Part shown: one piece after another, positions 6,385-51,908 of the stretch
Numbering within the stretch: the first letter of the stretch is position 1
How the letters are laid out: every line of letters starts with the position of its first letter
Virus record (IMG/VR): IMGVR_UViG_3300047510_002509
Length of the DNA: 64,000 nt
DNA from: a virus
Reading direction: 5' to 3' (one strand)
Program-made: the position numbers and the translations under genes
The notes under the pieces: model-generated
Databases searched by the model: none
The model's input: the letters and a program-made list of their open reading frames with translations, nothing else
What the model was told of the DNA's origin: nothing

Positions 6385-6963
6385 CTACTTAATGTCCTGT
6401 CCGCAAGCGTGGCAGACTTTCTTTTCTACTGTTGTTGCAGGAGCATCTGCCTTTACCCCAGCACCTTTAAATTTAGGGCGACCAAACCCAACGATTGAGA
6501 CCATTACTCCAGCCTTGTTCTTCTTATAAGCACGAAGCTGCTTGCAAACTTCTCCACCATTTCTTTGGCTTCCGCCCTTGCGATTTGTAGTGTTTCCTTC
6601 AATACACCAAACGGTCCCATCTTCATTGTCTTTAATAACAATTCCAACGTGACTAATGCGATCAACACCATCTGCCGGGAAATCAAAATAGGCAATATCT
6701 CCTGGCTCTGGGTCACAAATTTGTGCGTCATACCAACGATTAACTTTTTTAAATGCTGCTGCACCACTTGGAGTGTAAACAGTGTTAGGAATTTTTACTC
6801 CTGCTTGGTCTCCACACCAATTAACAAATGAACCGCACCATGGTTGAAAGTTAGCTCCAGACCACTTGCCATACTTTGTTTCGTTGTCTTTTGGACCTTC
6901 AATGGTTCCAAGCTCTGCTTTTGCAATCTCAATAAGACGAGCCGCTGTACCTTGCTCTGCCAT
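6385..6963 (-). CDS. CHAP-domain endolysin/amidase
   Basis: PWCGSFVNW, PGDIAYFD, SHVGIV, IEGNT. Confidence 0.9.
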   Translation of the reverse strand: MAEQGTAARLIEIAKAELGTIEGPKDNETKYGKWSGANFQPWCGSFVNWCGDQAGVKIPNTVYTPSGAAAFKKVNRWYDAQICDPEPGDIAYFDFPADGVDRISHVGIVIKDNEDGTVWCIEGNTTNRKGGSQRNGGEVCKQLRAYKKNKAGVMVSIVGFGRPKFKGAGVKADAPATTVEKKVCHACGQDIK

Positions 6964-34712: not shown

Positions 34713-35156
34713 AGTTTGTCAAGAGGAGAACGGCATGGCTTACGCAGACGGTGACTGTACGAGAGAGCCTATGCCAAAAGACGGCGTGTCAGATATGGAT
34801 GACCTGCTATGACAACGGATTGCTTCTGGTGCGGCGAGGAAGTTAATCGGGACGGCGTGTGCAAAAGCTGCGCAGCAGCCCCATTGCCCGATGCCACCAC
34901 TTCCGAATAACGGCTCGCCCTACAACGAGGTATGCACCCACACTTCCTGTGAAAGCGGCGAGCAACGGCAAGAGATGATGCAGACCCCAGTCACCTGACG
35001 GGTCGGCATGCGCAAGAATTGAAATCATTCTTTAATACTAACGGTATGCACGTAGAACTTAGCCCGTAAGTACAACGGTATGTCGTGTAGTAATTTACAC
35101 CTAAATTACAACGGTAATACTGCAGGAAGGTTTAGCTGCAGCTTAAGATCCGATCC

Positions 35157-35582
35157 CAACTTCCAAATAACTTTGCCAAGCTAGCGGCCTGGCGTTTTCG
35201 CATGAACGCACGAAAAAAGTGCAGGAAAATGTAACCGCTCGGTGACAACAGCAGGTGTACGTACACTCAACATCCAAATAACTTTTATGCAGCCGCAGCG
35301 GATCAGAGCTGTAGGGGGTAAAAATTTCTGATCCATCGGGCCCGAAGCTGTTGAACTTCCAAATAACTTTGGGTAACGGCCCGCCGCCAGATCAGATTTT
35401 TTTACCCCTGAAGCTGCAGCAGCTCCAGATCAGATTCAACATCCAAATAACTCAGTGCACAAAAAATCCGCTGTTCAAAAATCCTTGACAAGACTTGACA
35501 AGGGGTAGTAGGCTAGGTTTCGCAACGCGGGCGCCGCGAAACTAAAAAGGGCCCGATCAGATCTAACTTCCAAATAACTTTT
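35157..35582 (+). repeat. Iteron-like direct repeats AACWTCCAAATAACT (5 copies) in non-coding DNA
   Basis: Copies near 35158, 35269, 35355, 35437, 35565; related copies at 36839, 37083, 37131, 45418, 46049. Confidence 0.75.
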
Positions 35583-35651
35583 ACCATCTCAAGCTGCAGC
35601 ACCAGGTGCACGCCACTTGCGCAGATAAAAAATTTATAATAGAGTTGCGGC

Positions 35652-35958: not shown

Positions 35959-36003
35959 AACTAACGGAACAAGAGTTCCATACAAAACGATGAAAGGACA
36001 CCC

Positions 36004-36306
36004 ATGTCAACGATTACAAAAGTAGCGGCTTTACCCCAGTGTGATTTCTGCACAGAGAAGGCCCGCTTTGACGGCATGACTATTTACGGCCCGTGGGGCA
36101 ATATGTGTGAACCACACTTTGATACATACGGCGTCGGACTTGGACTCGGCAAGGGCCAGCGGCTCGTCGAAGAAGGAGAAGATGTTGTGATGTCGTGGGG
36201 CGAGCTCGCGGATCTCAATCACGGCAAGCAGGTAGAACTGTTTGGGTTTTGCACCTGTGAAGACGGCCCGTCTGTGTATGAGGACTGCAACGGAGGGAGG
36301 GACTAA
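36004..36306 (+). CDS. Hypothetical Zn-binding protein
   Basis: GATGAAAGGA leader; CDFC, GPWGNMC..H, GLGLGKGQ. Confidence 0.75.
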   Translation: MSTITKVAALPQCDFCTEKARFDGMTIYGPWGNMCEPHFDTYGVGLGLGKGQRLVEEGEDVVMSWGELADLNHGKQVELFGFCTCEDGPSVYEDCNGGRD

Positions 36307-36423: not shown

Positions 36424-36840
36424 ATGAGACTACCGAATAAGTTGTACCACGCCGCACCTGAGTGCGTGCTCATAAATATTCAAACGGAGGGATTGAAATC
36501 TAACTTCGGAGAAATCTATGCGGCAAGCACTCCAGCGGATGCAATGAACTTTATGTGGTTCAGACTTCTTGACCACCCGCACTACCAGTTCGAGAACGGC
36601 AAGGTAGTCGGCATGGAACTAGAACGGCATGACCGTATCTACGTATTTGAAATTTCAACTAACCGCACAAACAAAGAACGTTGGGAAGTTGGGACGGATC
36701 ACAGCTCAAAATTTTTTGGCGGCGCGGAGAGTTGGGTGTACGGAGGTAAAAATATCGAACGGCGTGCCATAAGCGACATCACATACTTCTCACGAGAGAT
36801 GATTGAAACGGCAAGCAGATCCGCTGCAGCGTCGAACTAA
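36424..36840 (+). CDS. Hypothetical protein, possible ADP-ribosyltransferase/KptA-like fold
   Basis: LYHAA......I..EGL...IY pattern. Confidence 0.55.
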   Translation: MRLPNKLYHAAPECVLINIQTEGLKSNFGEIYAASTPADAMNFMWFRLLDHPHYQFENGKVVGMELERHDRIYVFEISTNRTNKERWEVGTDHSSKFFGGAESWVYGGKNIERRAISDITYFSREMIETASRSAAASN

Positions 36841-36903
36841 CATTCAAATAACTACGGTAAGCCCGTGGAGCTCACATTGAGCCCACGGGTTTATTATTTT
36901 GTC

Positions 36904-37095
36904 ATGGGTAAAAAAGAACGGGATGAACTCAAGCGTCGCATCAAAGGCGTGCCTGGGAACTACGTGCAGAACCAGAAGGCACAGGTCTTTGAAGACCGCC
37001 GCACAAAGCGGCTTCGTACCCGTGGGGTAAAAAACGATAACGCAATTCAAGAATCGTTGATGTCTGATCGCGATCCGCGTCCAACTTCTGAATAA
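36904..37095 (+). CDS. Basic hypothetical protein, leaderless
   Basis: TATTAT-6-ATG; DRRTKRLRTR. Confidence 0.6.
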   Translation: MGKKERDELKRRIKGVPGNYVQNQKAQVFEDRRTKRLRTRGVKNDNAIQESLMSDRDPRPTSE

Positions 37096-37207
37096 CTTGG
37101 CAATGCCGCCAGGGCCCTCCAGGTTGATGGAACTTCCAAATAACTTTCGCTTTTCAAATCTCGCATTTGCTGACTGAACGACACGCCCAAAAAGTTTGAC
37201 AAAGAAC

Positions 37208-38589: not shown

Positions 38590-38931
38590 ATGTCTAAAGA
38601 AGAAAACATTGTTGATGCGGAGCTCGTCGCAGGCGAGGATTTCGAGGTAAAAATTATCGATCCGCAGCCTATCGAGCGTAGCTTGCACTACTTCGCGCTT
38701 GACGGGAACTACGGTAACGCGAGTGGCATGCTCGTGCTAGAGACTACGTACTGGAGAGATGTCGACTGGGAGATTCTGGAGTCAGCATCTGATGACCAGC
38801 GCGCCAATGTCGCACGGTTGATTACTGAGTCATACGAGAAGCCTGAAGACATGACGGTGCTGTATGACAAGTTCGAGCAGTACGGTATTGACCTTGATGA
38901 TTTTATGCCGCGAGACCAGCTTGACAGCTAG
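38590..38931 (+). CDS. Acidic hypothetical protein
   Basis: Probable start MSKEENIV. Confidence 0.65.
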   Translation: MSKEENIVDAELVAGEDFEVKIIDPQPIERSLHYFALDGNYGNASGMLVLETTYWRDVDWEILESASDDQRANVARLITESYEKPEDMTVLYDKFEQYGIDLDDFMPRDQLDS

Positions 38932-39095
38932 GCCTCACGTAGGGTAAAAATATAGAACTGCCGCGGGTTTCTTCGTCGTTATCCCGTGTGCCACACCTGA
39001 GCATGTGTAAAAACTGCTCACTATCCTTTTCTGGCGAGCGCCGATGTCCCCCAAAGAGGGGACAGGAAATAAATCAAAAAGTTATTGCGTTCTAC

Positions 39096-39658: not shown

Positions 39659-39693
39659 AGTTTTCACTAGCACCAACGACGAAAGGACACCCA

Positions 39694-40152
39694 ATGCTAG
39701 ATAACACGAAAGATGTTCAGGGCGTAGGCGTTTACGCCGAGTTCCGTAAGCCCGGAGCAACAATGCAAATCATTGTCACACCTGATGGATACACAACTGA
39801 TGGGAAAGATGTTCCTGCCAATTTGTTCCGTCGAGTAGTGACACCAGCATCACCTAAGAAACAATGGCGCAACAATGCAATTCCTAATCACGCGATTACA
39901 GAATTGAGTGGAGTGGCACTTGGTGATGAAAAGAAAGAGGCTTTTGCTTCCCAGCGTTTGTTTTTTGCGATTGACTTGTTTGATGCAATAAACAATGGTG
40001 GGTGGGAAATTGTCAAAGACGCTTTTCTTGTTGAAGTTTCCAAAAAAGATTTGGAAGATGTTCGGACAGGAAAGACACCCAACAAACTTCTCTATCGCAT
40101 TGGTTTGGTTAGAGAAGCCAACGAGTTCCCACAAGAACTAATACCAGCGTAA
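39694..40152 (+). CDS. Hypothetical early protein
   Basis: ACGACGAAAGGA leader. Confidence 0.75.
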   Translation: MLDNTKDVQGVGVYAEFRKPGATMQIIVTPDGYTTDGKDVPANLFRRVVTPASPKKQWRNNAIPNHAITELSGVALGDEKKEAFASQRLFFAIDLFDAINNGGWEIVKDAFLVEVSKKDLEDVRTGKTPNKLLYRIGLVREANEFPQELIPA

Positions 40153-40177
40153 AGACGACGAAAGGACATAGGGAAAA

Positions 40178-41221
40178 ATGGAAAACACAAATCTTAGAGA
40201 GAGATACAACTCTCTCGGTGGTAGTAAAACTTTGTGGCAGATGGTTGAAGAAGTTGTTGCTCAGGCAGTATCTGAAACTTCAACAACAAATCTATCTGCA
40301 CAAGTTGTATCTGCGGGGCGTTATGTTGCTCGCGCTAGTGGCTCAGATAGAGCGCCACGAAAGTCAAAGCAAGTAATTTCCGTAGATAGCATGGAAGGTG
40401 AAGAGTCTTACGAAAGACCAAATGGCGAAATGTATTTTGGTCGCATGTGGGGCGAACACTCAGATGTGATGGCACTTCGCAAAGCGAGAGAAATGACTAT
40501 GAAGTCTTTCTCAGGTGAAGGTGGCTCTCCAATGTTTGCACTTATCTATGGCGCTCCGGGTTGCGGTAAAACTGCGATGGTTGAAGCCGCTTTTGGTGAT
40601 GATGTTGTCACACTCATTGGAACAGGTGACACCGAAGTTGCTGACATGGTTGGTGGTTATGTTCAAACTCCAAGTGGTGGTTTCGATTGGGTTGATGGTG
40701 GTTTAGTAGATGCCGCCGTCAATGGCAAAGTTTATTTCATTGACGAAATTGGTTTGATTGACCCAAAGGTTTTGTCACTTGCTTATGGTTTGATGGACGG
40801 ACGACGCGAGTTAGTTGTCACCGCAAATCCAGAGCGTGGCACTATCAAGGCTCACCCAAACTTCTATGTAGTTGCCGCGACTAACCCAAATGCTCCGGGA
40901 GTTCGTTTGTCTGAGGCGTTGCTATCTCGTTTCACTCTTCAAGTTGAAATGACAACAGATTGGGCGCTCGCAAAAAAGCTCGGAGTTCCAACTGCGATAG
41001 TTACTGCATCACAGAACCTTGCTAAGAAGCAAGTGTCTAATGAAGTTTCATGGTCTCCACAATTCCGTGAGTTGCTTGCTTTCCGAGATGTTGCGAAAAC
41101 TTTTGGCAATACTTTCGCTATCTCGAACCTACTTGCCTCTGCCCCCGAAATAGACAGACCTGTCGTTGCCGATGTGCTGACAAGGGCTTATGGGGAAGAG
41201 GTAAAGCCAGCGAAAATCTAA
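40178..41221 (+). CDS. MoxR/CbbQ/CobS-like AAA+ ATPase
   Basis: GAPGCGKT, FIDEI, AATNP, LSEALLSRF. Confidence 0.92.
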   Translation: MENTNLRERYNSLGGSKTLWQMVEEVVAQAVSETSTTNLSAQVVSAGRYVARASGSDRAPRKSKQVISVDSMEGEESYERPNGEMYFGRMWGEHSDVMALRKAREMTMKSFSGEGGSPMFALIYGAPGCGKTAMVEAAFGDDVVTLIGTGDTEVADMVGGYVQTPSGGFDWVDGGLVDAAVNGKVYFIDEIGLIDPKVLSLAYGLMDGRRELVVTANPERGTIKAHPNFYVVAATNPNAPGVRLSEALLSRFTLQVEMTTDWALAKKLGVPTAIVTASQNLAKKQVSNEVSWSPQFRELLAFRDVAKTFGNTFAISNLLASAPEIDRPVVADVLTRAYGEEVKPAKI

Positions 41222-41289
41222 CCCCTATGTCGGATTTTCGCTGAGGGGTAGGGGGCGCTTCATGGGTGTCGCGCCCCCCACTTCCCTAC

Positions 41290-41319
41290 TTGACACCCAA
41301 AGATGTTTTATTGTATTAT
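41290..41319 (+). promoter_or_regulatory. Early promoter
   Basis: TTGACA-18-TATTAT. Confidence 0.75.
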
Positions 41320-41367
41320 TTTCATGTCGAGGACAACGACATAAAGACAAATGGAAGGAACGACGAA

Positions 41368-43137
41368 ATGGCACACATAAAGGTTTCTGCAACTAGAGCA
41401 GAGTCCACTCCCCCTGAGTGGTTAGCAACAGGCGCACAGATAGGCGAACTTGTAAACACTTGGTCTGGAAGGTCAGACATAATCGCTTATGTAGGTGAAG
41501 GTGCAGGTGGTATCGCACCAGCATGTTTCAACCCACCATTAGCAGAGGTTGAAGTAAATACAAAGGTCGCGTTTGGTGGCGCAACAACTCCAGCGATGGT
41601 TGGAGATTTGAGAGAGCGCAAACAACAGTTTGAGTTTCCAAAAGCGATAGGTGCAATTTTGCACGAAGCCTTTCACGCAAAGTTTTCTATCTTTGACATG
41701 GAAAGTGCATACAAGGCGCTCGCAAAAGATGAATACGAAGCCTTGATACTTTTGGAAGAGGGTCGTATTGAAACTCAGGGTCTATGGCACATGCCTGAGT
41801 CTTTGAACTTTCTACGCGCTTGCGCGATGGAACTTGTTATCGCAGATGCAAAAGAAATGGAAGCCAGCACTTCAACAACTCAAACTTGCGCCAGCGCAGT
41901 TGGATTGGTCTTGGCTCGCGTTGATGCGGGGATTGTAGATGCTCATGAAGTTGCAAATGTTGAAAAAGAAGTTTCAGCTTTTTTAGGTGAAGAAGTTATT
42001 TCAAAGTTGCGAGAGATTTCTAAAAACTTTCGCGAAACTATTATTGACTTTCCAACTCAGGCAGAGACTCACCTTTACCCATTAGCAAAAGAGTGGGCAA
42101 AGATTATTCGTGATGTGAAAGAAGAGAAGGGCGAGAAAGATGAGCAGATGGCTCAGGCTTTCGCGCAGATGATGATGGAAGCGATTAGCGAAGCATCAGA
42201 GGAAATGGAAGTTTCAACAGGTATGGCGCTCGCAGACCAGCAGATGTCAGAAGAGATGGCAGAGGAAGCAAAGTCAAAAGCCAACCAAGCCAAAGAAGAA
42301 AACGAAAACAAAGATGTATCAGAAAAAGTTTTCTCAAAATCCACAACAGAAACAGGTGGAAGCACAAACTCGACTCTAGTAGAAGTTCGTAAGCCAACCA
42401 GCGCAGAGCGCATCGCGGCAGTTACGATTTCTAAGATGTTAGAAAAAGCAAAGTATCGTGACAGAGATGCGATTGAAATTAGTTCAATTATTCCTCCCGG
42501 AAGATTGCGCTCTCGCGCTATTGTTCAAAATGCCGCGATGAAGTCACGCGGGATTGTCCAGCAGACAGAAGCATGGCGTCGCACAGTTCGTAAGCAGACA
42601 GATGAAACAAGTCTTACAGTTGGTGTGATGGTGGACATTTCAGGTTCAATGGGAAGTGCCATGAAACCAATGGCGACAACTGCGTGGGTAATGTCAGAAG
42701 CAGTTCGCAGAGTGCAGGGTCGTTGCGCGATGGTTTACTACGGCTCAGATGTTTTTCCAACTTTGAAGGCAGGGCAACACCTTGAAGAGGTTCGAGTCTA
42801 TTCAGCGATGGATAATACTGAAAAGTTTGACAAAGCCTTTAGAGCCTTAGATGGCGCACTAAATCTGCTCAATGGTAGTGGCGCTCGATTGCTTGTCATT
42901 GTGTCCGATGGACAATACACAGGTGAAGAGCGTGGCAAGGCTCGCCATTGGACAAAGCGTTGCGCCGAGTCAGGTGTTGCGGTTTTGTGGCTTCCGTTCG
43001 ACTCAGGGCATTACGCCAAATCACTACTAGAAAGTAGCGCGGGTGTAGTAATGTCAGGAGTGCTTGACCCTGTATCGGCTTCCGTCGAGATTGGAAAAAC
43101 GGCAGAGCGAGTCCTAACAAATGTGGGCATGCGGTAG
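41368..43137 (+). CDS. VWA (CobT-like) protein with N-terminal HExxH metallopeptidase-like motif
   Basis: HEAFH...EEGRIE; MIDAS DISGSM; VSDG; start MAHIK after GGAAGGA. Confidence 0.88.
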   Translation: MAHIKVSATRAESTPPEWLATGAQIGELVNTWSGRSDIIAYVGEGAGGIAPACFNPPLAEVEVNTKVAFGGATTPAMVGDLRERKQQFEFPKAIGAILHEAFHAKFSIFDMESAYKALAKDEYEALILLEEGRIETQGLWHMPESLNFLRACAMELVIADAKEMEASTSTTQTCASAVGLVLARVDAGIVDAHEVANVEKEVSAFLGEEVISKLREISKNFRETIIDFPTQAETHLYPLAKEWAKIIRDVKEEKGEKDEQMAQAFAQMMMEAISEASEEMEVSTGMALADQQMSEEMAEEAKSKANQAKEENENKDVSEKVFSKSTTETGGSTNSTLVEVRKPTSAERIAAVTISKMLEKAKYRDRDAIEISSIIPPGRLRSRAIVQNAAMKSRGIVQQTEAWRRTVRKQTDETSLTVGVMVDISGSMGSAMKPMATTAWVMSEAVRRVQGRCAMVYYGSDVFPTLKAGQHLEEVRVYSAMDNTEKFDKAFRALDGALNLLNGSGARLLVIVSDGQYTGEERGKARHWTKRCAESGVAVLWLPFDSGHYAKSLLESSAGVVMSGVLDPVSASVEIGKTAERVLTNVGMR

Positions 43138-43227
43138 CGCGGTAGCGAAACCCATGAACTCAATAGCCCCCGAAACAAGTGCGTCCTTCCAGCGCGTTGT
43201 CCAACTTGTGGCAGGGGCAAAAATTGG

Positions 43228-43260
43228 AAGCCCCGTCTGAAACCAAGAGGCGGGGCTTTC
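43228..43260 (+). terminator. Intrinsic terminator
   Basis: AAGCCCCG...CGGGGCTTT. Confidence 0.7.
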
Positions 43261-43294
43261 AACCTAAAAACAAAACGACGAAAGGCGGGTAAAA

Positions 43295-45499: not shown

Positions 45500-45531
45500 A
45501 GTTTTTGTCAGAAGGACGAAAGGACAAACAA

Positions 45532-45915
45532 ATGCAAACTCTCGACAAGCAAGTAGTAGAACTCGACTCCAGTTGTGTATGCGCCGAAGAAGATGGCACA
45601 TGGACAGAGTGTTGGGGTTGTTGGGACGACTCGAAGGAACTCTATGCAGAAATGCTAGAGGCTTGGAAGCGTGCCATTAGTTTCGATGAAGGCAAACAAG
45701 TAGTGCGGATAGATGGCAGGGCTATGACTTGGCTACGCCGTGATGGGTATGCCGTAGTTGAGGCAGACAAGGTTTTAGATGCCTTGCAGATAAATGGCGA
45801 CTTCCGCTTGGTATTCACACTTGAAGAAACAGAACTGAAGTGCGTGCGGTATTCACATGATGAGCCAGTAGGTGCGTCGTTTACTTTCTCTGCGATGGAA
45901 CAGCAAGAAGACTAA
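45532..45915 (+). CDS. Hypothetical early protein
   Basis: GACGAAAGGA leader; CxC..CxxC; SHDEP.G. Confidence 0.75.
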   Translation: MQTLDKQVVELDSSCVCAEEDGTWTECWGCWDDSKELYAEMLEAWKRAISFDEGKQVVRIDGRAMTWLRRDGYAVVEADKVLDALQINGDFRLVFTLEETELKCVRYSHDEPVGASFTFSAMEQQED

Positions 45916-51842: not shown

Positions 51843-51908
51843 TTCAGATGTTGGAGGGCCTGGTGATCGGAATTTTTACCCTCCCAGGCCCTCTACTCCC
51901 ATAGCAAA

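Follow-up and report, generated by a model that had tools for sequence, protein, structure and literature searches.

A conserved trailer hairpin in a phage VWA gene is complementary to the leader of the same gene and may act as a translational lock

Can a phage message use its own 3' end to close its own RBS? The question is raised by a VWA gene in a window of 64,000 nt (the whole stretch of DNA that was analysed), where the earlier note had described two 8-mers in the trailer as perfect complements, in nested order, of two sites in the leader of the same gene. The window is part of a 136-kb phage contig with a GC content of 44%. The closest named relatives are Actinomycetia phage DSL-LC01, recovered from a lake metagenome, together with Microbacterium and Gordonia phages from soil; this kinship makes a freshwater actinobacterium the most likely host. 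The region around the locus consists of short plus-strand units with sigma-70-type promoters, which are probably early genes, and the VWA gene belongs to a module of three adjacent genes, X-MoxR-VWA.

39694–40152, + strand: gene X, conserved, 152 aa, function unassigned, first gene of the module (family comparison)
40178–41221, + strand: gene for a MoxR-type AAA+ ATPase, the partner of the VWA protein, with a putative lock of its own
41368–43137, + strand: VWA gene, 589 aa, ATG at 41368 and stop at 43135–43137; homologs start at the 41368 position

The VWA protein has an HExxH zincin-like domain at its N-terminus (the invariant motif HEAFH, residues 99–103), continues as a long helix and ends in a VWA domain that carries DxSxS. 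The best fold match of the VWA domain is NorD, which is bound to the MoxR-type ATPase NorQ, and an AAA_5 ATPase gene adjoining a MIDAS-type VWA gene is the arrangement of a MoxR-VWA chaperone pair. A pattern search of prokaryote genomes returned no homolog of the protein, so at that sensitivity the gene looks confined to phages. We ruled out GTG 41266 as the start, as it precedes the promoter and the homologs start further downstream.

The elements of the leader and trailer are as follows.

41290–41319, + strand: VWA sigma-70-type promoter (TTGACA, 18 nt, TATTAT), a promoter-like site in the same place in most homologs
41325–41341, + strand: 5'-terminal leader hairpin (local fold), 5-bp stem and 7-nt loop AGGACAA (41330–41336), target site 1
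41352–41359, + strand: Shine-Dalgarno (SD) region TGGAAGGA, 8 nt before ATG 41368, target site 2
43166–43218, + strand: trailer hairpin displaying both antisense segments (fold; double-sided changes in the outer stem)
43184–43191, + strand: anti-SD segment TCCTTCCA in the apical loop, exact complement of the SD region
43195–43202, + strand: anti-loop segment CGTTGTCC in the bulge, core TTGTCC, exact complement of leader 41331–41338
43224–43262, + strand: strong GC-rich 15-bp hairpin (z −5.9), a weak or leaky terminator or a 3' stabiliser

The transcript would start near 41324–41326, about 5 nt after the −10 box, and the leader folds with GGACAA in the loop of the 5' hairpin and the SD single-stranded. 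Sequence-based promoter calls placed a promoter before the VWA leader and none between the VWA stop and the trailer hairpin, which lies 30–85 nt past the stop. In the local fold of the trailer, CCUUCCA (43185–43191) forms a 7-nt apical loop on a 4-bp inner stem and GUUGUCCA (43196–43203) forms an 8-nt bulge. All four 8-mers of the earlier note are indeed present and are exact reverse complements in nested order, although the outer parts of the hairpin needed correction, with the GGGGC arm at 43214–43218 and ACAAGT at 43175–43180. The two sites are spaced differently, 13 nt apart in the leader and 3 nt in the trailer, and the upstream contact is better read as 6–7 bp with the loop of the conserved 5' hairpin rather than as an 8-bp helix.

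How far can this genome alone carry the case? Dinucleotide shuffling of the trailer, repeated 3000 times, never gave the 8+8 score, and in the 136 kb there are just two occurrences of each leader 8-mer. However, a score of 16 is also obtained with one unrelated leader of the 148, and co-folding energy (net −6.8 kcal/mol) puts the own leader in only 34th place of 148. For these two reasons the single-genome evidence for pairing with the own leader is suggestive and not decisive. No covariance-model family in Rfam matched.

We therefore turn to the homologs, a set of 102 distinct full loci with approximately 48–100% protein identity that fall into 43 clusters at 75% and 63 lineages at 90%. The match between own leader and own trailer was 12.7 nt, against 7.3 nt for background windows and 9.9 nt for the trailers of other clusters, and exceeded the swapped mean in 39 of the 43 clusters. 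Across the 63 lineages the cognate pairs had 13.9 paired nucleotides and the swapped pairs 11.6, a difference beyond all 20,000 permutations. When disjoint closest pairs on the protein tree were compared, the cognate combination won 19 times, lost twice and tied ten times (p = 2 × 10−4), and each window taken alone gave a similar picture (13 to 3 for the SD, 12 to 3 for the upstream site). The VWA-only longest-match version of the tree-paired test was borderline (11 to 3, p = 0.057).

The changes at the sites themselves are compensatory. The nucleotide that follows GACA is paired in 16 of 21 loci, with C-G, A-T, G-C and T-A all in use, against 7.3 loci expected from a permutation that ignores kinship. 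Whole sites have been jointly replaced in the L125 clade, which has a G-rich SD and a C-rich loop, and in the L056 clade, where a single match of 10–13 nt is found; L108, L029, L047 and L168 have matches of 9–11 nt that differ in sequence, and the GenBank phage DSL-LC01 has matches of 13 nt and 9 nt between its own leader and trailer. The structures are kept as well. The outer stem of the trailer hairpin has double-sided changes at all eight pairs (16 homologs), the antisense segment is more open than the remaining trailer in 51 of 53 loci, and the GACA loop sits on 12 different stems and is kept in 19 of 20 homologs, a motif-anchored count over hand-picked loci whose shuffle control is biased by that choice. 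In nearly every lineage the pairing covers the SD itself.

There are exceptions. The nested order seen here is not a general rule, as L132, L135, L137 and the L118/L141 clade have a crossed order in which the first hairpin is the partner of the leader loop and the loop of the second hairpin that of the SD. L174 has no trailer hairpin and is a counter-example that appears to have lost the element. The VWA genes of cultured Microbacterium and Gordonia phages have matches of only 4–6 nt, which point neither way. In some clades the trailer loop is more conserved in sequence than its own target, hinting at a second partner. Taken together, the comparison of homologs argues decisively that the match between own leader and own trailer is maintained by selection. 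The end-to-end pairing proposed in the earlier note is thus strongly supported by covariation, and it is very probable that the trailer really pairs with its own RBS.

Is such pairing special to this gene? Among 37 neighbouring gene families only VWA (7.7 against 5.0 nt) and MoxR (6.9 against 5.1 nt) match their own trailers; the other 35 are near background, one small family reaching 6.3 nt. The MoxR unit carries two hairpins of its own.

41208–41243, + strand: hairpin spanning the MoxR stop codon, in which CCCTATGTC (41223–41231) complements the MoxR RBS spacer at 40165–40173
41251–41278, + strand: second hairpin of the MoxR unit, in which TGGGTGTC (41263–41270) complements the gene X RBS spacer at 39686–39693

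The first of these overlaps the last codons of MoxR. Its anti-SD begins a median of 6 nt after the stop codon's first base and varies in step with the SD. A tree-paired targeting matrix assigned gene X to the MoxR terminal hairpin (15 to 2), MoxR to the post-stop element (15 to 1) and VWA to its trailer (11 to 3), and the same tests among X, MoxR and VWA gave no signal from the trailer of one unit to the leader of another. Throughout this genome, in a scan that took the VWA start as 41266, own-leader/own-trailer pairing was not general, and beyond MoxR and VWA the scattered hits were about as frequent as expected by chance. In three of four cultured Microbacterium phages, the leader of the upstream gene is matched by the hairpin that follows MoxR (11, 8 and 7 nt).

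We also considered a 9-nt pairing between the VWA trailer and the MoxR terminal loop, present in this genome and two close relatives, which the tree-paired test did not support (12 to 6). The trailer segment concerned, ACCCATGAA at about 43149–43157, complements the MoxR terminal loop only in this genome and in L096/L098. The same loop (41263–41270) also matches GACACCCA at 41293–41300, in the VWA promoter just downstream, and could form a pseudoknot with it on read-through RNA; this match is kept in L034, L140, L162 and L072 and is absent in other homologs. A further match, perfect over 10 nt and longer than that of gene X, lies in the leader of gene 36004 (35984–36006), in another unit.

Several relatives show arrangements of their own. 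In the cultured Microbacterium phage Pumpernickel, 11 nt of the hairpin downstream of MoxR gp227 are complementary to the leader of gp226 (L184, 2334–2370 and 790–808), and the corresponding post-MoxR matches to the upstream leader are 8 nt in Cece and 7 nt in A3Wally. In L177–L180 (the Microbacterium phages Pumpernickel, Cece, A3Wally and Zooman) the VWA stop is followed by a GC-rich hairpin whose conserved loop resembles TGTCCCGCA; three of these VWA genes look leaderless, and the loop matches their first codons over only 4–5 nt. The clade of L041, L049, L056, L065, L066, L077 and L163 has a separate promoter of the CCTGATATAAT form, without a −35 box, for each module gene, together with a short leader and a single long antisense match. 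In L160 the antisense segment of the VWA trailer (about 6830–6870) is present as three tandem 10-nt copies directly after the stop, and the L035 clade has a tRNA-like sequence in the MoxR-VWA intergenic region.

What might the pairing do? The best reading, to which we give a probability of about 0.52, is a self-addressed translational lock that acts in cis, shuts once the gene has been transcribed and limits its output. The RBS would stay open while the 1.8-kb gene is transcribed, and ribosomes would load. Once the trailer hairpin has been made, it would bind the leader twice, by docking its bulge on the 5' hairpin loop and by pairing its apical loop with the SD, and the message would be closed from one end to the other. 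Initiation would then halt, and the ribosome-free mRNA would decay faster, leaving a limited burst of protein per transcript. Since MoxR and the 152-aa gene carry matching locks, the whole module, a remodelling ATPase with a peptidase-bearing adaptor, would be rationed to a short early pulse.

Computed energies are consistent with this order of events. Opening the RBS costs 3.9 kcal/mol by itself, 6.8 kcal/mol in the presence of the own trailer and 4.5 kcal/mol with other trailers (31/43, p = 1.5 × 10−5). On the nascent VWA RNA the opening energy is 4.0 kcal/mol, inside the 3.3–6.7 kcal/mol range of the other early families, so a co-transcriptional block is not predicted. In the ensemble of the full-length 1.94-kb RNA, the SD pairs with the trailer with a probability of about 0.8 and the loop site with about 0.65, although the MFE structure is the open, local-hairpin state, and folds of 2 kb are unreliable. 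Occlusion of the SD is therefore supported in silico, and a repressive outcome of the pairing is quite likely. The timing needs restating. The earlier note had a terminator following the hairpin and the SD closing only on the completed transcript. The 15-bp hairpin at 43224–43262 is real, but it has at most three U's and was not called as a terminator; the RBS of the next gene follows 13 nt after it, where a promoter would not fit. Across the 43 clusters a GC-plus-U pattern follows the trailer in about half and is missing in several. Because several clades have no terminator after the trailer, the trigger would be completion of the gene and not necessarily of the transcript. Further points count against a lock in cis: the energy gain of −6.8 kcal/mol is not exceptional among leaders, and display in a loop is the hallmark of trans-acting antisense RNAs.

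Other loops in this genome also face leaders. The hairpin at 38962–38988 has a 15-nt loop complementary over 8–9 nt to a AACGACGAA tag that is found in at least eight early leaders, including that of VWA (41359–41367), and is likely a multi-target element. The hairpin at 51853–51895 has a loop complementary over 9–11 nt to a GGGTAAAAAT tag before the starts at 38590, 43295, 43755, 45131 and 49263. The leader of gene 45532 (45505–45534) contains both VWA-trailer sites (8 and 6 nt) in crossed order and is a possible trans target of the VWA trailer. The non-coding stretches 35100–35600 and 36830–37150 hold many copies of a AACTTCCAAATAACT-like motif, and the early promoters have the spacer word GCAGGAA in common; both may be protein-binding sites.

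The main rival is a 3'UTR-derived sRNA acting in trans. Decay of the mRNA would leave a stable two-hairpin fragment (about 43160–43262) that silences new VWA messages, and perhaps other GGAAGG leaders, serving as a timer of the early phase. Every covariation result fits this model equally well, the seeds are shown in loops between stable stems, and the loops at 38962–38988 and 51853–51895, antisense to tags of many leaders, can hardly all act in cis. We nevertheless consider it the less likely explanation. Gene X, MoxR and VWA show no cross-unit targeting, and of the 148 leaders only 8 match the anti-SD loop over 7 nt or more. Several clades have no 3' boundary, the hairpin leading directly into the next gene, and the MoxR element reaches back into the final codons of MoxR. 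Actinobacteria are not known to have Hfq, so short seeds would favour tethering. There is precedent for the trans model in OppZ and CarZ, whose repression of the transcripts they come from begins only after they are clipped off (PMC7398697).

A broader proposal, which we regard as doubtful, would make the 3' locks a general phage strategy in which each early X-MoxR-VWA gene circularises its mRNA. The MoxR lock, lying under the terminating ribosome, would reopen at each termination and allow closed-loop recycling, and the double lock of VWA, out of reach, would stay shut. If true, the geometry of the two locks alone would set a several-to-one ratio of ATPase to adaptor and the length of the early pulse.

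Pairing could also be protective or positive, either by shielding the 5' end from nucleases, as in Bacillus subtilis hbs (PMC5737220), or by joining the ends and so letting terminating ribosomes start again on the message they have just translated. The 6-nt median distance of the MoxR anti-SD from the first stop base would suit such a role, as a terminating ribosome would melt it, and the loop contact could persist as an anchor while the SD helix toggles. This is improbable for VWA, where the SD itself is covered in nearly every lineage, the RBS opening energy is raised and the segments mostly lie 22–60 nt or more past the stop, too far for a terminating ribosome to reach. A genome-scale assay moreover found that distal anti-SD sequences repress (PMC12697547).

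Storage in the manner of type I toxins, with an inert full-length mRNA activated by 3' trimming of the hairpin and expression thereby delayed, is more improbable still. A peptidase-bearing protein may need a delay, and hok and aapA use a 5'–3' long-distance interaction that is removed by 3' processing (PMC6733600). They also need metastable hairpins that block nascent translation, whereas the nascent RBS here is computed to be open. The gene is 1.8 kb long (589 aa) and no small toxin, and promoter calls showed neither an antisense antitoxin gene or promoter nor a strong antisense promoter at the leader. A chance or DNA-level by-product, from purine-rich leaders facing pyrimidine-rich trailers or from a relic inverted duplication, would agree with the ordinary energy rank in this genome and with a sense-versus-antisense strand test that did not favour the RNA strand (a test dominated by base composition, the leaders being A-rich), but is largely refuted by the tree-paired swap tests, the whole-site replacements, the 35 neighbouring families at background, the unequal spacing of the sites and the conserved loop display.

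A lock in cis would give the phage a protein-free means to time and ration its early proteins, and a compact, portable part that caps protein output per transcript. The homologs hold dozens of natural compensatory variants, in several architectures and on three adjacent genes, and these form a ready set for comparing action in cis and in trans. Anti-RBS sequences of 8 nt placed hundreds of nucleotides away repress translation, destabilise the mRNA and are depleted from genes (PMC12697547). Distal anti-SD sequences are normally selected against, and in the X-MoxR-VWA family such pairing is actively kept.

Natural 5'–3' pairing in bacterial mRNAs is represented by very few, poorly conserved cases, namely icaR, hbs and type I toxin mRNAs, and in the literature searched, with incomplete coverage, we found no phage precedent for a lock between a message's own ends or for an autoregulatory sRNA from a phage 3'UTR. 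The protein pair itself has a parallel in the group 2.2 jumbo phages, which encode a MoxR AAA+ ATPase and a metallopeptidase-fused vWA protein of the same architecture; there a role in virion assembly was proposed and no RNA control described, whereas here the genes lie among early-type promoters (PMC7824862). In hbs the two ends of one mRNA pair over a long range, as is predicted for the VWA message, but the hbs helix, of 14 nt, protects its message by masking an RNase Y site, where the phage target is the SD (PMC5737220). The hok and aapA messages have their SD sequestered by a 3' element on completion of the transcript, much as proposed here, although these mRNAs are short, encode toxins, carry metastable blocks, become active on 3' trimming and are countered by an antisense antitoxin, features not seen at the phage locus (PMC6733600).

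The Vibrio cholerae sRNAs OppZ and CarZ resemble the phage element in that a sequence from the 3' end pairs with an RBS of the same unit, and CarZ targets the first gene of its own operon much as the MoxR terminal hairpin targets gene X. They differ in needing release by RNase E (OppZ acts only after cleavage) and Hfq, and in acting in trans (PMC7398697). There is a close likeness in design to icaR of Staphylococcus aureus, where a pyrimidine motif in the 3'UTR is complementary to the SD of the same gene, with a predicted block of 30S loading and faster decay (PMC3868564). That system relies on a single motif of 7 nt, located 260 nt past the stop (PMC3868564), which is not conserved even in S. 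epidermidis (PMC7821165). VWA by contrast has two sites, displayed by a dedicated hairpin, and its element covaries over dozens of lineages, comes in several architectures and is repeated for three adjacent genes. It is this two-site design with a 5' hairpin loop, together with the deep covariation and one putative lock for each gene of a three-gene module, that sets the phage system apart from the known cases.
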